From a virus (taxonomy: Duplodnaviria; Caudoviricetes), in IMG/VR virus record IMGVR_UViG_3300042558_004043: a stretch of 64,000 nucleotides of DNA; one strand, 5' to 3'. The notes beneath the pieces are model-generated. The model made no database searches. It saw nothing but the letters and a program-made list of their open reading frames with translations, and was not told the origin of the DNA. The position numbers and the translations under genes are program-made. This document shows positions 21,601 to 58,310 of the stretch, piece by piece (the stretch's first letter is position 1; every line of letters starts with the position of its first letter).

Positions 21601-21635
21601 CGTAAAAATTAGATATTTATAAATAAAAAAATCAC

Positions 21636-26431: not shown

Positions 26432-27913
26432 ATGCAAAAACTTTCGAGTAACACACTTTCCATATTTGAATCCGCCACAAATGAAAAGGACATTGAAAAT
26501 GGATATAGATATTATTTCAAAACTATAATTGGTGATATAAATTTTACATCACCTTATGGTTGTGATGGATTTGGAGTTTCTGAAAGTTTGGGGATGAGGG
26601 TTCTATGTGAATTTAAAGATGACCTTAGTTTAAGTTCAAGAAACGAATTGGTTAAAGTTCTTTGTCAATCAATCTATTATATAAAGAAATTTGAATTATC
26701 AGGCCAGAAACTACCCAAAACTATTTTCATTGGGGATAGAAACGAATGTTTGGTTTTGCACGTTAATGACGTTTTCCATTATCTATCAATTAACTTTGAT
26801 TGGAATATCGCACCATCAAACGCTCACAAAAATTTGGACCTATATCAGAAATTATTTAATGATGATAATATTAATCCATTCATATTTTCTGTTGAGGATT
26901 TACCAACCGCTATCGATAAGTGTAAAGATTTGAATCAAAATGTTAAACGATTGATTCCGGTAACACCTCATAATATAACTGAAGTATATAACTATTTTGA
27001 AAAGAATGTTGTTGGGTCTCATAAACTATCAACCAATGAATTGTCAAATTTATTCATTCAGATATTAATATCACCCGGTGAAAACTATCTCCATCCAATC
27101 AAAGGAAAGAAAGTTGTTGTAACAAAAAACTTTGGTGAAGTTACTGTCAAAAGTAAGGAAGCGTTCGAATCTTTTTTCTCTCATTTTTCAAGGGAATATA
27201 CTCCAAGAGAAAAAGAAGCTCTAACTTCAATTGTTGACAGGCTTGTTGAAGATACAACTCGTCGTAAACAAGGTGAGTTTTTTACTCCAACAATTTGGGT
27301 TGATAAAGCTCATGAATATATTTCATCTGTATTTGGTGAGGATTGGAAGGAACAGTATGTGGTGTGGGACCCGGCTTGGGGGACAGGGAATTTAACCCGT
27401 GATTATAAGTTCAAGGAACTTTATGTTTCAACGTTGAACCAATCTGATATTGATACTGCGAATCAAATGGGATATAATCCTGAGGCGGTTAAGTTTCAGT
27501 TTGATTTTTTGAACGACCCCGATGAAAAACTTCCCCAAGGGTTAAAAAATGCTATTGATGAAGGTCGTGAGATTATTGTGTTTATGAATCCACCTTATGG
27601 GACTTCTTCCACATCGGAAAATAAACACAAAGAAGGGACTTCACTTACTAAAATTTCTGATATTATGAAATTAGAAAAATTAGGAAAATCTTGTGAACAA
27701 CTTTATGCTCAATTTTTATTTAAAATAAAATCATTAAAAATTAACCACATCTGTATATTTGCCAAACCTAATTTTTTTTCAAGTTCAGGTTTTACTGAGT
27801 TTAGAACAAAAGTATGGTATGAATATCACTTTAAAAATGGATTTGTAATGGATTCTTCAGAATTCGCAGATGTAAAAAAATGGCCTTTAACTTTTACAAT
27901 ATGGAACAAATAA
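26432..27913 (+). CDS. Type IIG-like restriction-modification protein, N-terminal part (nuclease-like domain + N6-adenine MTase)
   Basis: CDGF...LCEFK and QSIYY nuclease-like motifs; GEFFTP, WDPAWGTGNL (motif I), FMNPPY (motif IV). Confidence 0.7.
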   Translation: MQKLSSNTLSIFESATNEKDIENGYRYYFKTIIGDINFTSPYGCDGFGVSESLGMRVLCEFKDDLSLSSRNELVKVLCQSIYYIKKFELSGQKLPKTIFIGDRNECLVLHVNDVFHYLSINFDWNIAPSNAHKNLDLYQKLFNDDNINPFIFSVEDLPTAIDKCKDLNQNVKRLIPVTPHNITEVYNYFEKNVVGSHKLSTNELSNLFIQILISPGENYLHPIKGKKVVVTKNFGEVTVKSKEAFESFFSHFSREYTPREKEALTSIVDRLVEDTTRRKQGEFFTPTIWVDKAHEYISSVFGEDWKEQYVVWDPAWGTGNLTRDYKFKELYVSTLNQSDIDTANQMGYNPEAVKFQFDFLNDPDEKLPQGLKNAIDEGREIIVFMNPPYGTSSTSENKHKEGTSLTKISDIMKLEKLGKSCEQLYAQFLFKIKSLKINHICIFAKPNFFSSSGFTEFRTKVWYEYHFKNGFVMDSSEFADVKKWPLTFTIWNK

Positions 27914-33845: not shown

Positions 33846-34163
33846 ATGATTGAAGTACCTAAATTTTGTGTTGACAAATTTAAAACCACATTTGGTTATG
33901 AACCGTCATTTATTCAAATAAAGATGGATAACGATGAACGTATTGAAAAACTAACTTCTAAATCAAGAACAATATGGTTTTCATCCGTTTTTAGACATAA
34001 CGGTGTGTTTATAAAAGAGAAATTAGTTGAATATGATGCGATGGGTATCTATATTTATATTTTAAGAGATGACGAATCTCCTATAACCGATGTGACATTC
34101 ATGACCACTATTGATAGACAAAGTGTTTCAGAATTCACAATACACAATCTAAATAAAAAATAA
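33846..34163 (+). CDS. Hypothetical protein
   Basis: 105-aa ORF. Confidence 0.65.
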   Translation: MIEVPKFCVDKFKTTFGYEPSFIQIKMDNDERIEKLTSKSRTIWFSSVFRHNGVFIKEKLVEYDAMGIYIYILRDDESPITDVTFMTTIDRQSVSEFTIHNLNKK

Positions 34164-44238: not shown

Positions 44239-44268
44239 ATAAAAAATCAATATTTATAAATAAAAAAA

Positions 44269-45415: not shown

Positions 45416-45967
45416 ATGAAGTTTATTATCTCTGAACAACAACAAGAAAGATTGAGTGTTTACGATAAAGCTCAAAAAATGTTTTTTAAATTTTGGGACA
45501 AAAACGGGCCAAAGGCTGATGACTTGTTTTTCAAACTTTTTGGATTTACTAATATTGGTTTAGAGTTCGTAGGATATATGATAAGTAGAAACGACGTTTA
45601 TAGAATGTTAAGAAAGTGGTATGGTGGTGATAACGCAAAATCTAAAGCAATTGAGTTATTGAAACAAAAAAACTATACTGTTAATTCTTGTGGAGGATAT
45701 AATTTTGATTTTGAAGTTGTTCATTATTATATTAATAATGATATTGGTGAAATATATGTTATAGTGAAGCCTGATGTAAAAAATGGAACAGTTACTTTAT
45801 TAATGATTGGAGGTGAGGAACAAAATTTGGGTGACGCGATAAACAATCCAGATTACGGGTATGAAATAGAAGGAGAAATAGCCGATTGCATCTATGAATT
45901 ATTGATTCAAAAAATCACAGAAACAACCGGCTTTTTAATTAGTATTGATAGATTAATTTTAGATTAA
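45416..45967 (+). CDS. Hypothetical protein with IISEQQ leader
   Basis: MKFIISEQQQ; TATTTAT at 45405. Confidence 0.7.
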   Translation: MKFIISEQQQERLSVYDKAQKMFFKFWDKNGPKADDLFFKLFGFTNIGLEFVGYMISRNDVYRMLRKWYGGDNAKSKAIELLKQKNYTVNSCGGYNFDFEVVHYYINNDIGEIYVIVKPDVKNGTVTLLMIGGEEQNLGDAINNPDYGYEIEGEIADCIYELLIQKITETTGFLISIDRLILD

Positions 45968-47047: not shown

Positions 47048-47440
47048 TTATCTAACCGTTTTAACTTTATAGGGGAATTTACTTTCAAACCAAGTTTTTA
47101 TACCACTGTGCCATATCTTTTCCCCGAACATCTCATCCAATAAATTTTCTATTGGTAATTCTACCGATAACATTGGGGAACTTGACCTCCTTATATCTCC
47201 TGTTGGATTATTGCCAGTCCAATAACCTACTCCATACCAATAAAATAAAACGTCATCCTCATCGTACTTACCCGTATAGAATGCAACTTTATTTGGGTCT
47301 AACCCTTCAAAATGATTACCTTCTTCATCTACAAAATAGTCATAGGGGTGAAAATAATTTATTTCTTCGTTTTTAAAGTAGTTCTCTAAGAACTTTACAA
47401 CTACCTCATCTAATCTATTTTGATTAATTTCATATTCCAT
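47048..47440 (-). CDS. Divergent member of the MKYLITESQ paralog family
   Basis: MEYEINQNRLDEVVVKFLE...IKTWFESKFPYKVKTV. Confidence 0.6.
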   Translation of the reverse strand: MEYEINQNRLDEVVVKFLENYFKNEEINYFHPYDYFVDEEGNHFEGLDPNKVAFYTGKYDEDDVLFYWYGVGYWTGNNPTGDIRRSSSPMLSVELPIENLLDEMFGEKIWHSGIKTWFESKFPYKVKTVR

Positions 47441-47508: not shown

Positions 47509-47868
47509 TTAAGACTTAACCGTGTAAGTTCTTAGACAGTGAGCTGACCATGCCAAACCACCAAGTAGGATTGGCATAAAGATACCAACTCCACCTAATA
47601 TTGCAAAGTGAACTGCAACTGCTCCTGACATAGCGGATGATACTCCGAGAGCTCCAAAAATTGAAGTTCTTGGATAAATCAACAGTGCTAATGAAGCGAG
47701 TTCAAAAACACCAATCCATGTCATTTGAGGAAGCATTCCAAAGAATGTAAAATTCTGAGTCATTTCCTCTGAATGGGTAACTTTTGAGATTGCTCCCATT
47801 CCTAGCATAAACACCACAACTGCGGTGATAAGCCATCCTAAATTTTTAAGTGTAAGATATTTTTTCAT
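47509..47868 (-). CDS. DoxX-like membrane protein
   Basis: Four TM helices; KV..SEEM..NF, IGVFEL..LALLIYPRTSIFGA. Confidence 0.75.
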   Translation of the reverse strand: MKKYLTLKNLGWLITAVVVFMLGMGAISKVTHSEEMTQNFTFFGMLPQMTWIGVFELASLALLIYPRTSIFGALGVSSAMSGAVAVHFAILGGVGIFMPILLGGLAWSAHCLRTYTVKS

Positions 47869-51260: not shown

Positions 51261-51287
51261 AAAAAGGAGTCATCTGACTCCCTTTTT
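51261..51287. terminator. Bidirectional terminator-like hairpin
   Basis: aaaaaggagtca-tc-tgactcccttttt. Confidence 0.7.
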
Positions 51288-51731
51288 CAATTTTCCACCT
51301 ACAACCCTATTCTTTTTTGCTATATTTAAGTTAGACCACTCCTTATTACCGGTTATTTCTTCACCACAATAGTCAGGGATATTGACAATCCCAATTTCAT
51401 ACTCTATTTCGGCAGATGTTCTTCCATCGGGATAAACATCAATATCAACCTTATTACCTTCAAATGTGGTTTTATATCTTGTTTTTTCAAGTTTTATATC
51501 GGTAGATTGATACAAGTGGTGGGCATCCTGTACCGGAATTTCATATTCATACTCAGACTTTGTTGTTTTATCAATCTTAACTTTGTAAGCAACGTACGCC
51601 TCTTTATCATCAATGATTCTAACCCTGAATTGTTTTTTCTTATCAAACATGAGGTATGCTTGTTTGATATGAATTGGGGTTAGACCTTCAGGTAGATATT
51701 TGAGTCTGAATTTACGTTCTCTTTCAATCAT
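51270..51731 (-). CDS. CYTH-domain protein (triphosphate tunnel metalloenzyme)
   Basis: ERERKF, IKQAYL, FRVRI, EYEYEI, KTRY, AEIE. Confidence 0.8.
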   Translation of the reverse strand: MIERERKFRLKYLPEGLTPIHIKQAYLMFDKKKQFRVRIIDDKEAYVAYKVKIDKTTKSEYEYEIPVQDAHHLYQSTDIKLEKTRYKTTFEGNKVDIDVYPDGRTSAEIEYEIGIVNIPDYCGEEITGNKEWSNLNIAKKNRVVGGKLKKGVR

Positions 51732-52140: not shown

Positions 52141-52485
52141 TTACTGGGGAATAATGTCTGAACAAATATCTAACAAATTGTCAAGACTAATTTTGATATC
52201 CTCAGACTCCAACTTGTTAAGTATTCTTTTTAAACCTAAACCGATTACAAAGTGGTCTAATCCCCCAAGTGCAATGGTTCCGATGAAACCAAACGCCCAA
52301 AAGGCTAATGGCCAAGATTGACCCATAAGTGCGATTGAAAATACCGCAATGAATGATATCAAAAATGATGATTTCAGAATTTTTTTATTTCTATTCATCC
52401 ATCTGTATATTCCCAAATCGAAATAGTTATCGTGGAATACTTTTTTAATTCTGTTAATTTCTAATTGTGTCATAGTATTAATCAT
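52141..52485 (-). CDS. Two-TM membrane protein
   Basis: Hydrophobic hairpin in the centre. Confidence 0.6.
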   Translation of the reverse strand: MINTMTQLEINRIKKVFHDNYFDLGIYRWMNRNKKILKSSFLISFIAVFSIALMGQSWPLAFWAFGFIGTIALGGLDHFVIGLGLKRILNKLESEDIKISLDNLLDICSDIIPQ

Positions 52486-52990
52486 TTATATAGTTATCTG
52501 GTATAACCTCTAAAACTTCTCTATCACTTACTCCACCTCCTAATAATTGAAATATCTGACCATTTATTTGGTCTACGTGAATCCAAATTTGTTTCATATT
52601 TAATTTACTGTCATTAAAACTTCCAACCTCAGACCCCATATCAGTAAGATAATCAAATAACCAAGACAATAAAATTTGTTTTTCTCTACTCTCTGTTAAT
52701 TCAGGTATTATAACATTAACAGTTGCATCATAATGGTCTGGCATTTCTTCATCAAGTACTTGAAGTTCAGTTATAATAAATGGTAATTCAAACGGAATCA
52801 TAATTTCATCCTCATCTGCCGCTGAACAATAAAGATAACCACCAAGTTTGGACTGTACCATTGCTTGTAGGTAAGGATATTTTTTGGTAATATCTAATAA
52901 TTCATCTATACCACCAAAATATTTTGCAATGTCAAAAATATCTTGGCCTTTATCCATCATTGATATTATGGTTTCAGAAACTCTACTCAT
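52478..52990 (-). CDS. Hypothetical protein
   Basis: 170-aa ORF; TATTTAT upstream. Confidence 0.7.
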   Translation of the reverse strand: MSRVSETIISMMDKGQDIFDIAKYFGGIDELLDITKKYPYLQAMVQSKLGGYLYCSAADEDEIMIPFELPFIITELQVLDEEMPDHYDATVNVIIPELTESREKQILLSWLFDYLTDMGSEVGSFNDSKLNMKQIWIHVDQINGQIFQLLGGGVSDREVLEVIPDNYIND

Positions 52991-53038
52991 AATTTATAAA
53001 TATAAATAGTATGAGATATTTATAATAAAATTAAAGTC

Positions 53039-53314: not shown

Positions 53315-53715
53315 TGTTACTTAACGCTTTTATTTTTTTAGTTTTTGCAGGTATAACCAAAGGTTTTTTGGATTATTATGCCGACTCAGGTATTAAAGAA
53401 AATGAGTGGAGAAACAAATATAAAATATCCGAACACGGTGATTTAATTAAGACTGAGGATATAAAACATTGGTGGTATTTAGGTTTATATAAACCAAGAT
53501 TCGCAGAAAGATTCCCATTCAGTACAACAATATTGGTCGCTTTCACAGATAGATGGCACTTGGCCCAATTAATTATGTTAAGATTCTTTTATTTGGCCGT
53601 AGCAATAGGAGTAAGTAATAGTATATGGTGGGAATTATTATTATCATTCGTTGTATTCCCAATGGTGATAGGGGTGTTCTTTGATTTTACCTATTGTAAA
53701 CTTAAAAAGAAATGA
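53314..53715 (+). CDS. Membrane protein
   Basis: ERFPFSTTILVAFTDRWHLAQ plus TM segments. Confidence 0.65.
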   Translation: MLLNAFIFLVFAGITKGFLDYYADSGIKENEWRNKYKISEHGDLIKTEDIKHWWYLGLYKPRFAERFPFSTTILVAFTDRWHLAQLIMLRFFYLAVAIGVSNSIWWELLLSFVVFPMVIGVFFDFTYCKLKKK

Positions 53716-54134
53716 AATTTATAATAAAAGAAAGTAAGTTTAAAGAAACTATTATTGATAATATAGACAAAAATGGTCTATTAGATACACTTACTGTTAC
53801 AAATATGAGTTTTACCAAATTGTTCTCAATGATTGGTATGGATTTTCTAACCAACAAAGTAATGATTAATTTTATTAGAGATTTTATAAAAGATTATGGA
53901 GTTTTTTCAGTTCACGATATAGGTGAAGACCCAATTCCATATAATAAAACGGGTGATGAATATAGAGAAATATCATATTTTTCAAAACAATATGTATATG
54001 TTGATGTTTATAGTGGAAATAACAATTTGGGTAATTTCAAAGTACATTATGAAAATTTATCTGATGATATACTGACGGAAGTCTTTGATTTAGTTATGGA
54101 AGCATATGAGAATGGAAAATTTAACAACATATGA
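53712..54134 (+). CDS. Hypothetical protein with IIKESK leader
   Basis: MKFIIKESKF. Confidence 0.65.
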   Translation: MKFIIKESKFKETIIDNIDKNGLLDTLTVTNMSFTKLFSMIGMDFLTNKVMINFIRDFIKDYGVFSVHDIGEDPIPYNKTGDEYREISYFSKQYVYVDVYSGNNNLGNFKVHYENLSDDILTEVFDLVMEAYENGKFNNI

Positions 54135-54460
54135 TTCTCAACAATAAAATATTAAATAAACTTATAAACTCGGATTATATCAAAAAGATATATCCGATGA
54201 TTGACCGTATTGATACAAGAATGTTTTGGGATGGTGATGAAGAACTTCCATTTTACGACATTGAATTGGAAGTACATTTAAATGACCCTGACATAACAAC
54301 TTTCAATATGTATGAAAAAGGGTTTGACCCACATAATTTAATTAATGAACATATGATGTTCATACTTAAAATGGCGGGAATTGATAAGAATACGTCAATA
54401 ATAGAACAAGTTTATATTAAGGTATTAGGCCCTGACGGAGAAAAAATATTCACGTATTAA
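54131..54460 (+). CDS. Hypothetical protein
   Basis: 109-aa ORF. Confidence 0.65.
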   Translation: MILNNKILNKLINSDYIKKIYPMIDRIDTRMFWDGDEELPFYDIELEVHLNDPDITTFNMYEKGFDPHNLINEHMMFILKMAGIDKNTSIIEQVYIKVLGPDGEKIFTY

Positions 54461-54819
54461 TATACTGGTGTGTTTCTTCTTTTAGGGTATACTGATATCT
54501 CATCGATATCAACCTCAAACTTCTCACTAAACCAATCGGCAACAATATCAACAACCTTTGATTCTCTGATATTAATTAATTGTCTTAAAGTATCGACAAT
54601 ATCGGGATGGATATGTAACATACCAACACCATAATGAGGACTATCGTCATCAGATACACCAGGTCCGTAATAAAAATACTTAATATTATTAAGTTCTAAT
54701 CTGTAAGCGTCGGGATTATGCGGGTTAACTTCCTTTTTAGGTGTTATATCCTCAAACATACTATCCAAATATTTGTAGACAATATTATGAAGTTGAGTTT
54801 GTGTTATTATATATCTCAT
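54457..54819 (-). CDS. Divergent array member
   Basis: MRYIITQTQLHNIVYKYLD...IVADWFSEKF. Confidence 0.75.
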   Translation of the reverse strand: MRYIITQTQLHNIVYKYLDSMFEDITPKKEVNPHNPDAYRLELNNIKYFYYGPGVSDDDSPHYGVGMLHIHPDIVDTLRQLINIRESKVVDIVADWFSEKFEVDIDEISVYPKRRNTPVY

Positions 54820-54820
54820 A

Positions 54821-55126
54821 TTATGTCAACGAGTTTATTATTAAATGATATTCTTCTTTTAAGTAACGAGCCATCATGTCTGAAAATAAGCCTATCCCAA
54901 TGTCAAATATTTCCCACTCATTACCAAAATATTCTCCATTGAAATAGTAATTATTGTCATCTTCATAATTAGCAGTACCGACTAATAACTCACCATCACT
55001 ACCAAATAATCCTTTCCATTCTTCACCCCCATAATCTCGTATACCCAATTTTGAATTCTTGAATCTTGAATCAAAAAACGGTTTCATTAGTCTGTAAAGT
55101 TGTTCTTGGTTTAAAAGGTATTCCAT
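54821..55126 (-). CDS. Divergent array member
   Basis: MEYLLNQEQLYRLMKPFFD. Confidence 0.7.
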   Translation of the reverse strand: MEYLLNQEQLYRLMKPFFDSRFKNSKLGIRDYGGEEWKGLFGSDGELLVGTANYEDDNNYYFNGEYFGNEWEIFDIGIGLFSDMMARYLKEEYHLIINSLT

Positions 55127-55138
55127 ATCGTATAAATA

Positions 55139-55456
55139 TTAACCAGCACCGTAATCTGAGGAGGGGTACTTAATTTCAATACCTATTTTATTTCCAACCC
55201 AATCGGAAATTATATTCAAAGATGTATACAAATCTAGAGAAAAGAATTCCGCAACTTCGGTTAGAATATCTGAACTTATAAAACAATCTTCACTCATGAA
55301 AAAATACGCAATTTTTGCATATTGATTGTCTTTATAACTACGTTCAGATTCAAAGAAATAATGACCTCCACCATCTTCACGATGATAAAAGTCCTGAGCA
55401 TCAAGATAGTCAAATATGATATTGTCAAGCTGTGATTCGGTGATTAGATATTTCAT
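55139..55456 (-). CDS. MKYLITESQ paralog 8
   Basis: MKYLITESQLDNIIFDYLDAQDF...FFSL...ISDWV. Confidence 0.85.
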   Translation of the reverse strand: MKYLITESQLDNIIFDYLDAQDFYHREDGGGHYFFESERSYKDNQYAKIAYFFMSEDCFISSDILTEVAEFFSLDLYTSLNIISDWVGNKIGIEIKYPSSDYGAG

Positions 55457-55457
55457 A

Positions 55458-55841
55458 TTAAGAGATATTAGCGTTTCTCACATCAAATACTTTATATTCG
55501 GGGAACACAACATTAAAGGCGTCTGACATTAAATATTTACCGTGAACGTACCAAAAAGGATGGGGAAGTATCTTTTCAAAAAAGTCACCAAATTCTCTAC
55601 TATAATATAATTCACCTGTCATACCATCCTCATATATAACAAAAACACATATTGTTCCACCATTAGAATTGGATATGAAAATTCTATTATTTTCATTATC
55701 ATATGAATCAAATTGGTCAACAATGTAAGGAATAATTTTATCCTTTATCTTATTATATTGTTCCTCATATTCAAAATCTCTCCAATCCCTTTCAAGTTCG
55801 GAGATAAGTTTTAGTTGTGATTCTTTGATTATATATTTCAT
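55458..55841 (-). CDS. Divergent array member sharing the leader
   Basis: MKYIIKESQLKLISE; start at 55841. Confidence 0.75.
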   Translation of the reverse strand: MKYIIKESQLKLISELERDWRDFEYEEQYNKIKDKIIPYIVDQFDSYDNENNRIFISNSNGGTICVFVIYEDGMTGELYYSREFGDFFEKILPHPFWYVHGKYLMSDAFNVVFPEYKVFDVRNANIS

Positions 55842-55845
55842 GTTC

Positions 55846-56157
55846 TTAAAAATAATATACAACTATATCTGATTGGACATCAACCGCTCCGTAATGTGTT
55901 CCAGTTTTACTCTCAACCCACTTAGAAATTGCGGAAATGGAGTCAATATTACTTAAAGAAAAGAAAGAGGCAATTTCGTCCATTAATTTTCTATCAATCG
56001 TACACCAATAACTATTGAATTTAATCTGAGCATATTCATCTTTCTCTGAATTAAGGAAATAACCGTTTATTCCATACTCCATATAAACAAAATCCTGATT
56101 ATCCAAGTACTTAAAGATTACTTTATCAATCTGAGATTCGGTTATTAGGTATTTCAT
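55846..56157 (-). CDS. MKYLITESQ paralog 7
   Basis: MKYLITESQIDKVIFKYLDNQDF. Confidence 0.85.
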   Translation of the reverse strand: MKYLITESQIDKVIFKYLDNQDFVYMEYGINGYFLNSEKDEYAQIKFNSYWCTIDRKLMDEIASFFSLSNIDSISAISKWVESKTGTHYGAVDVQSDIVVYYF

Positions 56158-56181
56158 ATGATTATAAATATTAATTACTAT

Positions 56182-56487
56182 CTATCTAATTATAATTTCT
56201 TTAACTCTTCTACCCAAAGTATTTTCAACCCATCTGGCGATAACATATTTAGAACTATCAAATTCCATAGAGAAGAATTCAGCAATCTCATCAATTAACT
56301 CAAAACTCATAACACACTCACCACCACTTCTATAGTGTTGGATTAATCCGCCCGAAAATTCATCATTTTCTGAATTAACGAAGTAAGTTATATTATCACC
56401 AGCCATTCTCTTAATAATAAAGTCCTGATTATCCAAATACTTAAAGATAACCTTGTCAATTTGTGATTCGGTGATTAGATATTTCAT
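56182..56487 (-). CDS. MKYLITESQ paralog 6
   Basis: MKYLITESQIDKVIFKYLDNQDF. Confidence 0.85.
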   Translation of the reverse strand: MKYLITESQIDKVIFKYLDNQDFIIKRMAGDNITYFVNSENDEFSGGLIQHYRSGGECVMSFELIDEIAEFFSMEFDSSKYVIARWVENTLGRRVKEIIIR

Positions 56488-56510
56488 ATGATTATAAATA
56501 TAAGGTATTA

Positions 56511-56828
56511 CTATCTAACGTGTACTTCCTTAACTCTTTCATCCAAAGTATGTTCAACCCATCTACCAATAACATATTTTGAATCATTAAAGTCCATAGA
56601 GAAGAATTTGGCGACCTCATCAATCAATTCAAAATTTATAAAACACTCTCCATCTCTATAGAAATTAATTATTGAGTCGGTTCGTAAGTCACTTTCAGAA
56701 TTAAGAAAGTGAATTATATTGCTAACCCCAAAAGAAGTTTTAACTGATTTTCTTATAATAAAGTCCTGATTATCAAGGTACTTAAAAACAACATTATCAA
56801 GTTTAGATTCGGTGATAAGATATTTCAT
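56511..56828 (-). CDS. MKYLITESQ paralog 5
   Basis: MKYLITESKLDNVVFKYLDNQDF. Confidence 0.85.
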   Translation of the reverse strand: MKYLITESKLDNVVFKYLDNQDFIIRKSVKTSFGVSNIIHFLNSESDLRTDSIINFYRDGECFINFELIDEVAKFFSMDFNDSKYVIGRWVEHTLDERVKEVHVR

Positions 56829-56840
56829 ATGATATAAATA

Positions 56841-57170
56841 TTAGTTAGGAGTTCTTAAAGAAGAAACCATATCTTCAGTGACAAAGAATATGTTGGTAAC
56901 CTTCATTTTTAAAGTATTTTCAACCCACTTACCAATAACTTTTTTAGAATTAGATTCTCTCAGAGAAAAGAAGGAAGAAATTTCGTTAACTAATTTATAA
57001 GATATAAAACACCACTCATCATTTTCATCATATCTAATCTGAGCATATTCATCACTTTCGGAATTAACAAAAAATAAACTAATACTATCGCCGACCACGA
57101 CAAAGTCCTGATTATCCAAATACTTAAATATTACATTATCAATCTGTGATTCGGTGATAAGATATTTCAT
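56841..57170 (-). CDS. MKYLITESQ paralog 4
   Basis: MKYLITESQIDNVIFKYLDNQDF. Confidence 0.85.
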   Translation of the reverse strand: MKYLITESQIDNVIFKYLDNQDFVVVGDSISLFFVNSESDEYAQIRYDENDEWCFISYKLVNEISSFFSLRESNSKKVIGKWVENTLKMKVTNIFFVTEDMVSSLRTPN

Positions 57171-57182
57171 ATGATATAAATA

Positions 57183-57518
57183 TTAATTATAATAGGGTAT
57201 TCTCAACGCAAACCACTTCGTGTTGTTGCGCCATTCGGTGTTTGTGACCTTCATTTGTAGTCTATTTTCAACCCATCTACCTATAACTGGTTCAGAATCA
57301 TAATGTGACATAGAAAAGAAGGTGGAAATTTCTTCAATTAATTTATAATGTACATAACACCAATTATCATTTTTATCATATTTAATTTGAGCGTATACAT
57401 CATTCACTGAGTTCACGAAGTATATTTTTTCATCAAAGTTAATCTGAATAAAATCTTGGTTATCCAAATACTTAAAAACAACATTATCAAGTTTAGATTC
57501 GGTGATAAGATATTTCAT
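57183..57518 (-). CDS. MKYLITESQ paralog 3
   Basis: MKYLITESKLDNVVFKYLDNQDF. Confidence 0.85.
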   Translation of the reverse strand: MKYLITESKLDNVVFKYLDNQDFIQINFDEKIYFVNSVNDVYAQIKYDKNDNWCYVHYKLIEEISTFFSMSHYDSEPVIGRWVENRLQMKVTNTEWRNNTKWFALRIPYYN

Positions 57519-57880
57519 TCGGTTATAACTATTAATCTGTGATAGTTGTTAGCATCTCCGGCGTTTTCAATTCTACCAACTTTAATACTCAAAGTATTAC
57601 TAACCCACACTCTGATTATGTCCAAAGAATCTAATTTATCAATGGAGAAGAAGTCACATAACTCCTCAATCAAATCATAATTTACATACACCCAATTCTT
57701 AACTTCACCAATGGCGTCGTTTACATAAACACTAATCTGTGACATCCCATCCGACTCACTATTTAAGAAATATATATAATTGTTTTTTTTCTTCTTGTTG
57801 TTATATATCACAAAGTCCTGATTATCCAAGTACTGAAGGATAACACTGTCCAATTTAGATTCGGTGATTAAGTATTTCAT
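57515..57880 (-). CDS. MKYLITESQ paralog 2
   Basis: MKYLITESKLDSVILQYLDNQDF. Confidence 0.85.
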   Translation of the reverse strand: MKYLITESKLDSVILQYLDNQDFVIYNNKKKKNNYIYFLNSESDGMSQISVYVNDAIGEVKNWVYVNYDLIEELCDFFSIDKLDSLDIIRVWVSNTLSIKVGRIENAGDANNYHRLIVITE

Positions 57881-57892
57881 ATGATATAAATA

Positions 57893-58225
57893 TTAATTAT
57901 ACCATGGCATTCTCAAAGCCATAAAATTGTCCAAAACAAAACCAAATCTTTTGACCTCCATGTTTATTGAATTCTCAATCCATTTAACAATAATTTTCTC
58001 AGATTCAGAATTTTGTAATGAAAAGAAGGCAGAAATTTCAGTTAATAAATCGTAAGATATATAACACTTTCCATCATTTTTATCATATCTAATTTGAGCA
58101 TATTCATCATCCTTTGAGTTCATGAAGTATATGTTTTTAGGAGCGTTAATCTGAATAAAATCTTGGTTATCCAAATACATGGTTGCAAGCTTATCGATTT
58201 GTGATTCTGTTATTAGATATTTCAT
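57893..58225 (-). CDS. MKYLITESQ paralog 1
   Basis: True start at 58225 (MKYLITESQIDKLATMYLDNQDF), internal to the 151-aa track ORF. Confidence 0.85.
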   Translation of the reverse strand: MKYLITESQIDKLATMYLDNQDFIQINAPKNIYFMNSKDDEYAQIRYDKNDGKCYISYDLLTEISAFFSLQNSESEKIIVKWIENSINMEVKRFGFVLDNFMALRMPWYN

Positions 58226-58310
58226 ATGATATAAATATAATAATGCAACAAAATATCCACCTTTACTTAACGGGGGGAATTTATTATAATTAAAATAAAA
58301 ATATATACAA

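Follow-up and report, generated by a model that had tools for sequence, protein, structure and literature searches.

The window, a stretch of 64,000 nucleotides (nt) from a virus of the class Caudoviricetes (IMG/VR record IMGVR_UViG_3300042558_004043), carries eleven back-to-back small genes on the minus strand at 54457-58225. We found that all of them but J represent a previously undescribed family without a match in Pfam, PHROG, NCBIfam or PDB. The family is an old, diversified group of small acidic proteins, modeled as alpha/beta folds, of lake T4-like jumbo phages. Its proteins begin with a common leader, and the explanation we favor, tentatively and at somewhat less than an even chance, is that this leader may be a capsid-targeting propeptide on proteins that would be packaged in the phage head and injected into the host. 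For comparison we used G001, a complete relative (IMG/VR contig of 321,403 bp with direct terminal repeats and a completeness rating of complete), and further related loci (L numbers).

Eight of the eleven genes (A, B, C, D, E, F, G and I; hereafter core copies) encode proteins of 101-121 amino acids (aa) with pairwise identities of 40-57%. An MKYLITES..D.....YLD.QDF start and an FFS..S...I..W block are invariant among them, and the family profile scores on them with E values from 1e-36 to 1e-57. Thus, the open reading frame (ORF) listing, the shared motifs and the family profile bear out the eight paralogs and their coordinates given in an earlier note on this DNA. The count of eight stands, but the genes do not form the uninterrupted run described there, because the divergent member H (55458-55841) sits inside it. 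Of the three divergent relatives and the outlier at 47048 claimed in addition, H, K and O were upheld by profile comparison, while J aligned over its first 20 residues only. The members are as follows.

57893-58225, minus strand: core copy A, 110 aa; nearest relative in L039, not in G001
57515-57880, minus strand: core copy B, 121 aa; absent from G001, orthologue in L039
57183-57518, minus strand: core copy C, 111 aa; start overlaps the end of B; G001 orthologue 96% identical
56841-57170, minus strand: core copy D, 109 aa; used for the fold model
56511-56828, minus strand: core copy E, 105 aa; lost in L006
56182-56487, minus strand: core copy F, 101 aa; array position differs in G001
55846-56157, minus strand: core copy G, 103 aa; core motifs, family profile
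55458-55841, minus strand: divergent member H, 127 aa; insertion in helix 1; hhalign versus family profile 97.9%, E 6e-13
55139-55456, minus strand: core copy I, 105 aa; core motifs, family profile
54821-55126, minus strand: J, 101 aa; leader-like start MEYLLNQEQL; hhalign over residues 1-20 only, 72.9%; membership of the body unsupported
54457-54819, minus strand: divergent member K, 120 aa, starting MRYIITQTQL; hidden Markov model E 8e-8, hhalign 100%
47048-47440, minus strand: dispersed divergent member O, 130 aa; hhalign 99.6%

Relatives of the family, without exception metagenomic, comprise 2,773 cluster representatives with E values below 1e-3.

The leader was described by the pattern M-K/R-hydrophobic-hydrophobic-hydrophobic-S/T/K/N-E at the N terminus. 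Outside the family, five G001 genes (115-346 aa) start with this pattern, compared to 0.04-0.10 expected from composition. In 66 related loci, it was present in 343 of 2,226 ORFs. The nonfamily leader ORFs of these loci include 89 unique sequences of 80-403 aa that fall into 36 body clusters; their alignment to the family is confined to residues 1-15 to 1-27, and they show no detectable likeness to one another. The window itself contains two leader genes whose bodies lack detectable similarity to the family.

53712-54134, plus strand: leader gene, 140 aa, starting MKFIIKES
45416-45967, plus strand: leader gene, 183 aa, starting MKFIISEQQ

In the 343 leader ORFs, the consensus reads I (95%), T (92%), E and then S (83%), i.e., I-T-E↓S, where the arrow marks the putative cut. 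All eight core copies start with MKYLITE↓S. Judged by these sequences, the first 7-10 residues behave as a separable module, and the leader end fits the L/I-x-E cleavage site of T4 gp21 (PMC9026906). The propeptides removed in T4 range from 7 (Alt) to 65 residues, those of 7-19 residues being the precedent here, and the T4 capsid-targeting sequence (CTS) is the sole feature common to diverse internal proteins (PMC9026906, PMC3012670). L/I-x-E was also dense in two head-module proteins of G001 (3.75 and 2.0 per 100 aa versus 1.25 genome-wide). Furthermore, the N-terminal arm of the G001 capsid protein contains YLINE↓A, which is near the YLITE↓S of the leader; the T4 alignment leaves the used site unfixed. 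A literature search with the leader string returned irrelevant matches only.

The proteins with which such a leader would have to work are encoded in G001, in both cases outside the region corresponding to the window. They are a prohead protease (Peptidase_S77, PF03420, E 1e-25) and a gp23-type capsid protein (PF07068, E 1e-63), the latter confirmed by alignment to T4 gp23. The window (approximately 31% G+C, phage-like in character) corresponds to 154.9-212.9 kb of G001 with approximately 88% identity and conserved gene order. Since G001 has this protease and this capsid protein, we assign the phage, from sequence, to the distant T4-like jumbo phages of lake water, with a genome of approximately 320 kb. 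Searches of the cultured phages in INPHARED by blastn and tblastn gave no match to the window, and window DNA was present in many lake-water metagenomes. The host is likely a member of the Flavobacteriia, as suggested by one related contig that was binned with a metagenome-assembled genome (MAG) of Flavobacteriaceae and by CHU_C domains (type IX secretion) encoded in relatives.

Most array genes have an upstream motif of their own, as claimed in the earlier note. In seven of the eleven, TATTTATA is located 4-5 nt before the ATG, always on the minus strand:

58230-58237, minus strand: TATTTATA of A, 4 nt before the ATG
57885-57892, minus strand: TATTTATA upstream of B
57175-57182, minus strand: TATTTATA upstream of D
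56833-56840, minus strand: TATTTATA upstream of E
56493-56500, minus strand: TATTTATA upstream of F
56163-56170, minus strand: TATTTATA upstream of G
55131-55138, minus strand: TATTTATA upstream of J

The remaining genes, C, H, I and K, directly adjoin the preceding gene or overlap with it. In the window, ATATTTATA was observed 19 times versus 4.1 expected, and sigma-70-type promoters were not enriched there (27 found versus 31.9 expected). Of the 112 TATTTATA sites in G001, 56 precede a gene start by no more than 40 nt. The genes preceded by the motif include those for the prohead protease, the scaffold and the largest tail proteins, usually with a distance of 11-16 nt followed by ATAAAA. We infer that TATTTATA is the version of the T4 late promoter used by this phage.

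Two spacing classes of TATTTATA were discernible. In the first, the motif lies 11-16 nt before the ATG, is followed by ATAAAA and precedes most structural genes; in the second, which comprises approximately 10 G001 genes, most of them bearing the leader, the distance to the ATG is exactly 3-5 nt. The second class would imply leaderless or near-leaderless messages. Two large leader proteins of G001, of 331 and 346 aa (219053-220048 and 255299-256339; loci L077:19053-19997 and L079:15299-16339), have TATTTATA at 3-4 nt. One of them gave feature-level leads to restriction-endonuclease-like families (scores 0.82-0.85), and the other contains an HExxH motif (HECNH); both are leads only. Further TATTTATA sites in the window are found, for example, at 21613-21621, 44250-44258 and 53016-53024.

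To describe the protein, an AlphaFold2 model of copy D was built with 58 homologues. Its mean predicted local distance difference test (pLDDT) value was 90.2, with an average of 66 for residues 1-10. In the model, helix 1 (residues 7-19) is followed by four strands, two further helices (58-67 and 72-87), a strand (93-97) and a last helix (99-105). Residues 1-6, ahead of helix 1, have no regular structure and were modeled at lower confidence. No likeness to a known protein emerged. Searches of Pfam, PHROGs, NCBIfam and PADLOC matched no family member (one chance-level DUF1247 row, 16.9 bits, was well below cut-off), Foldseek against PDB gave no match with E below 0.1, and VIA-align against 48,161 chains gave Z scores of 4.5 or less. 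Only two unnamed proteins were found in the AlphaFold DB clusters (E approximately 1e-3), and BFVD and the ESM Atlas matched only unnamed relatives from uncultured phages. A search of all PDB sequences with the family profile returned two chance-level rows, and IPI* was not among them. Thus, a sequence or fold likeness to T4 IPI* was not seen in the PDB profile search, Foldseek or VIA-align. The comparison with PD-(D/E)XK nucleases yielded weak fold rows only (NERD, template modeling [TM] score of 0.46; UPF0102, Hjc and Mrr, TM scores of 0.3-0.4), and the conserved Lys expected of the D...(D/E)xK motif is absent from the family.

How the leader would operate can be outlined by analogy to T4. 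Each gene may be viewed as a cassette with a conserved 5' module, which often comprises TATTTATA, 4 nt and the ATG and always the leader MK(Y)(L/I)ITE↓SQ, followed by the family body and, in many members, by a repeat of 36 nt, an exchangeable insert of 29-31 nt and a cut-off second repeat. The leader would direct the protein into the prohead core, where the T4-type prohead protease would remove it after Glu7, and the mature protein, starting at Ser8, would be kept in the head until it entered the cell together with the DNA. Diversity arises by ancient duplication, by gain, loss and exchange of whole cassettes through recombination in the 5' module, and by wholesale swaps of the 3' insert. Late timing, packaging, cleavage and injection of the array proteins are all inferred in this manner. 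As to their function in the host, counter-defense or rivalry between phages are the obvious candidates, at the level of a guess; an anti-GmrSD or other antidefense role is pure conjecture.

Like T4 IPI, IPII and IPIII, whose CTS is processed by gp21 (PMC9026906, PMC3012670), the array proteins are small and have a short N-terminal leader ending in L/I-x-E. In both cases the leader is found on otherwise diverse proteins and the locus varies between related phages. The T4-type protease and the gp23 capsid of G001 are further similarities, and a leader of 7 residues has the length of the Alt propeptide. Unlike the T4 proteins, the window family showed no sequence or fold likeness to IPI* in the above searches, and its members are acidic rather than basic. 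Moreover, T4 has three or four such proteins, compared to at least 11 paralogs of one fold plus dozens of other leader clusters here; it has no counterpart of the 3' repeat-insert-repeat unit, and packaging and cleavage are putative in the present family. The ejection proteins of phiKZ-like phages (phiKZ, 201phi2-1 and SPN3US; PMC9026906, PMC5694885) are comparable in that many proteins, some of them paralogous, are head-internal cargo cut after Glu by a diverged T4-type protease. They differ in being mostly large, with S/A-x-E sites and no common leader of such kind, and they are not homologous to the family.

The idea of a constant packaging tag on T4-like cargo, put forward in the earlier note, was strengthened by the protease and capsid of G001, by the site-like leader, by its presence on dissimilar bodies and by the upstream motif shared with structural genes. 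Several observations weigh against it. All family members are acidic (isoelectric point 4.2-5.6, net charge -2 to -12), and T4-type internal proteins have been described as basic (PMC9026906). In K, J and O, Gln replaces Glu at position 7, the putative cut site, and the array-type relatives described below start with MVITDRLKQ and have no L/I-x-E site. Up to residue 23, the conserved stretch forms a confidently modeled helix, and some of the "tag" is thus mere structure. The enrichment of the leader is partly post hoc, because the relaxed pattern was written after two examples, and very remote kinship of some small leader proteins could escape single-sequence profile comparison. It is uncertain whether TATTTATA promotes the array genes, since a start site placed as in T4 would, with only 4 nt in between, coincide with the ATG or lie within it. 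Finally, late timing of the array genes is suggested only by the association of the motif with structural genes.

These points leave room for proteins that stay in the cytoplasm late in infection, where they could, for example, exclude superinfecting phages, take over the host or aid assembly. The leader would then be either the first part of an N-terminal helix that these proteins have in common or a motif for docking to a shared partner such as a phage chaperone, and the 5' module would be conserved mainly for recombination and expression. The confident helix 7-19, the acidic proteins and the missing Glu7 in K, J and O agree with this explanation, as does an HSP70/DnaK-like gene near the array in relatives (e.g., L001:16979-18844, approximately 7 kb from their array). 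On the other hand, the last three residues of the leader match the protease site in more than 90% of the 343 ORFs, and the leader is present on proteins of 80-403 aa that otherwise have no detectable mutual likeness.

The nucleotide sequence of the 5' module speaks to both sides. Exact shared tracts of 27-50 nt were found in it between otherwise diverged copies, e.g., C and E, and synonymous divergence (dS) between orthologues was 0.45 in the first 23 codons versus 0.11 in the middle. Together, the tracts and the uneven dS indicate recombination in the module, and conversion or module exchange of this kind is what cytoplasmic proteins with a 5' module kept for recombination might show. However, leader synonymous sites vary between most copies (proportion of synonymous differences [pS], 0.54-0.65), and the constraint on the leader is therefore exerted at the protein level. 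Taken together, we consider a cytoplasmic role possible, if rather unlikely.

Next to the packaging tag, the earlier note had proposed a tandem gene accordion. Gene accordions are recent tandem amplifications under selection, as with poxvirus K3L. The array resembles an accordion in its tandem arrangement and in its copy number, which varies among relatives as predicted (1-11 copies per locus). Recent amplification was nevertheless not borne out. The window copies are 40-57% identical, and their synonymous sites are saturated, with a pS of 0.62-0.65 in every region, including the first 23 codons; nonsynonymous differences were 0.11 at the N terminus versus 0.37-0.55 elsewhere. In a tree with the copies of 15 other loci, no two window copies were sisters, and each had an orthologue in another phage. 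The saturation and the orthologues elsewhere exclude a recent accordion, and we conclude that the array is an old standing repertoire.

Gain, loss and exchange of copies were evident from the relatives. Compared to the window, the G001 array lacks B, has a different gene in the place of A and has F at another position, and E is lost in L006. The closest copies of A and B are found in a different, co-occurring phage (L039). In lake metagenomes, contigs matching window positions 55987-58113 joined array positions in other orders, either skipping 356-2083 nt or stepping back; these joins may reflect coexisting array variants or assembly effects at repeats. In a riverine metatranscriptome (n = 1), copies I, F, E and D were matched at 90-99% by five short contigs; the contigs show neither ends nor strand, and carry-over of DNA is possible.

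Because of the saturation, the ratio of nonsynonymous to synonymous divergence (dN/dS) of the paralogs is unusable, and selection was judged from orthologues. Their dN/dS was 0.07-0.39, compared to mostly 0.02-0.13 for other window genes. By region, it was 0.47 in the middle and 0.41 in the tail and never above 1. For the diversifying selection that the earlier note implied, the raised ratio of the orthologues speaks in favor and the lack of any value above 1 does not. Nor is the middle the most variable part of the protein, as had been assumed: the C-terminal tail, encoded by the 3' end of the gene, varies more and is the truly hypervariable part.

Indeed, the 3' ends have an architecture of their own. 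Throughout the family, the first 13 nt of a segment that encodes VENT.. (repeat 1) recur 65, 66 or 67 nt downstream (repeat 2). The recurrence was 13/13 in fourteen cases, whereas shuffles peaked at 8/13, and within a gene, repeat 2 changes along with repeat 1. Because the offset is not fixed in frame, the spacing is set in the DNA and not in the protein, and the common ..LRIP.. tail is the -1 frame reading of repeat 2. In the window, the unit is full in C, shortened in A and decayed in D, while E and F stop directly after repeat 1:

57237-57272, minus strand: repeat 1 of copy C, 36 nt, encoding VENRLQMKVTNT
57208-57236, minus strand: insert of copy C, 29 nt, 52% G+C
57193-57207, minus strand: cut-off repeat 2 of copy C, starting GTTGAGAATACCC, 65 nt after repeat 1, 10/13 match
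57903-57979, minus strand: unit of copy A, with repeat 1 (57944-57979), a 26-nt insert (57918-57943) and a cut-off repeat 2 (57903-57917)
56845-56924, minus strand: unit of copy D, with repeat 1, a 29-nt insert and a degenerate second repeat (7/13, by script)

In copy C, the -1 frame reading of repeat 2 gives the tail ..LRIPYYN; in copy A, repeat 2 lies at an offset of 62 and matches at 10/13 positions (counted by eye). We conclude that the 3' unit is vestigial in the window (A, C and the degenerate D).

The family-wide set comprises 169 unique inserts of 29-31 nt, with a G+C content of 43% versus 32% for the loci; by length, there were 127 cases of 30 nt, 27 of 29 nt and 13 of 31 nt. Copies with body identity of at least 94% share the same insert, and at 85-91% the inserts are mostly unrelated and of equal length. 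Apart from the window, the copy C insert was seen only in four close relatives, in each case in the orthologous copy; it is unrelated to the L010 insert, though the gene bodies are 87% identical. Longer versions of the unit are found in array-type genes, which are absent from the window. In these genes of relatives (e.g., L011:13065-13850, L047:12217-12987 and L020:8718-9512), the N-terminal domain of the family is followed by 3-9 units, each consisting of a 36-nt repeat and a 30-nt unique insert. All 160 periods in these arrays are multiples of three, so the arrays are kept in frame and thus translated. The fold model of one such protein (A4) had a pLDDT of 41, with values below 40 over the array part.

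This layout resembles CRISPR. The type VI-B arrays of Flavobacterium columnare, F. covae and Flavobacterium sp. J27 (PMC5395568, Table 4; L084-L086) likewise have a 36-nt repeat and 29-31-nt inserts, and in phage and bacterial arrays alike the terminal repeat is the truncated one. The array repeat of the relatives agrees with the VI-B repeat of F. columnare at 25 of 36 positions, among them the last 12 (counted by eye with the fixed preceding G; a script gave 24 of 35). At a 66-nt period, this last 12-mer was found among the GTDB representatives in only three Flavobacterium arrays and one MAG. There are differences, too. The window showed no match to either half of the F. columnare repeat at three or fewer mismatches per half; the phage arrays have in-frame periods only, whereas the Flavobacterium VI-B arrays mix 65, 66 and 67; and the repeat fold is weak or absent in the phages. 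The family consensus repeat folded with -1.2 kcal/mol and that of copy C with -2.3 kcal/mol, both with z near 0, compared to -10.9 kcal/mol and z -2.5 for the bacterial repeat, and the alifold consensus for a hairpin in the small-gene repeats was empty. In GTDB genomes, the small-gene repeat at CRISPR spacing was restricted to two MAG contigs (Flavobacteriaceae and Bacteroidales), the longer of which carries single units scattered along it and not bacterial CRISPR arrays.

Could the units act as nucleic acids, with the protein being secondary? They would then be mini-CRISPR arrays or Racr-like decoys that hijack or jam a type VI-B or II-C system of the host. For this there are precedents in viruses without cas genes, in which mini-CRISPR arrays, solitary repeat units and Racr combine a repeat, a spacer-sized insert and a truncated repeat near a promoter (PMC6858448, PMC10651486). 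The exact recurrence at 65-67 nt, the G+C-rich unique inserts, the co-variation of the repeats, the likeness of the relatives' repeat to the VI-B repeat with its restricted 12-mer, and the truncated terminal repeat are in line with such mimicry. Here, however, repeat 1 is the coding sequence of a conserved protein's last helix and strand, the units in relatives are in frame and translated, and the hairpin is lost. No protospacer was detected for any insert in 1.3 Mb of related loci or for the copy C insert in IMG/VR and GTDB, on the phage side Cas1 was not found in G001 and PADLOC gave no cas match on the large ORFs of the window, and Rfam found nothing in the array or in two relatives' loci. 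Furthermore, five of the eight core copies in the window do not have any second repeat, and the window does not contain the halves of the F. columnare repeat. We therefore regard mimicry at the RNA or DNA level as improbable; a Racr or other noncoding repeat mimic is not supported, since the repeat is coding sequence under protein constraint without a conserved fold.

Another way to accommodate the unit, which we deem unlikely at present, is that the 3' ends were written by a process similar to CRISPR adaptation. A coding repeat would take up 29-31-nt inserts, perhaps by means of the Cas1-Cas2 of the host, and the inserts would be translated, so that leader-tagged, head-packaged proteins would gain ever-new C-terminal peptides. 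The units of A, C and D would be collapsed one-unit relics of this process.

Variable C-terminal peptides would also be expected of proteins on the outside of the virion, such as head decorations or fiber accessories, in which the peptides would face the environment and tune adsorption. The late-type motif common to structural genes, the small multicopy genes whose hypervariable tails are in frame in relatives, and the acidic character could be explained in this way. Yet the array is set among accessory genes (nitroreductase, DoxX-like and CYTH), approximately 100 kb away from the head module, no likeness to known decoration or fiber folds was found for the family, and the array part of the relative's protein folds with a pLDDT below 40. 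Moreover, a leader with a protease site points inward. A place on the virion surface is thus the least probable of the explanations considered, and a leader that targets the proteins to the capsid interior remains the one we prefer.

The genes near the array and a few other positions in the window were recorded as well. Divergent from the array is a nitroreductase gene (58311-58940, plus strand; Pfam E 2e-20, phrog_18935 E 1e-50), and the accessory genes beside it encode a DoxX-like membrane protein (47509-47868, minus strand) and a CYTH-domain protein (51270-51731, minus strand). An ORF at 26432-27913 (plus strand) gave a weak PADLOC match to mad2 (E 4.5e-5, 20.5 bits). At 33846-34163, 52478-52990 and 53712-54134, dS to G001 was only 0-0.04 compared to a background of 0.3-1.2, suggesting recent exchange between the window phage and G001.

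In summary, the 3' end of the family corresponds, in small genes, to the CRISPR-like cassette arrays that relatives keep in frame, and it connects a protein family with an architecture of repeats and inserts that is known from CRISPR alone. The window represents the decayed end of this spectrum of arrays, which is of use in putting the steps in order. Should the leader be a capsid-targeting sequence, the uncultured jumbo phages of lakes would apply the head-loading of T4 at a far larger scale, with one paralog family providing 8-11 members per genome and dozens of other clusters carrying the same tag. Among the tagged G001 proteins, two resemble a PD-(D/E)XK nuclease and an HExxH enzyme, both as leads only. 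The leader would then provide a sequence rule for listing injected proteins in metagenomic phages and a portable tag for packaging foreign proteins in a phage of the Bacteroidota.

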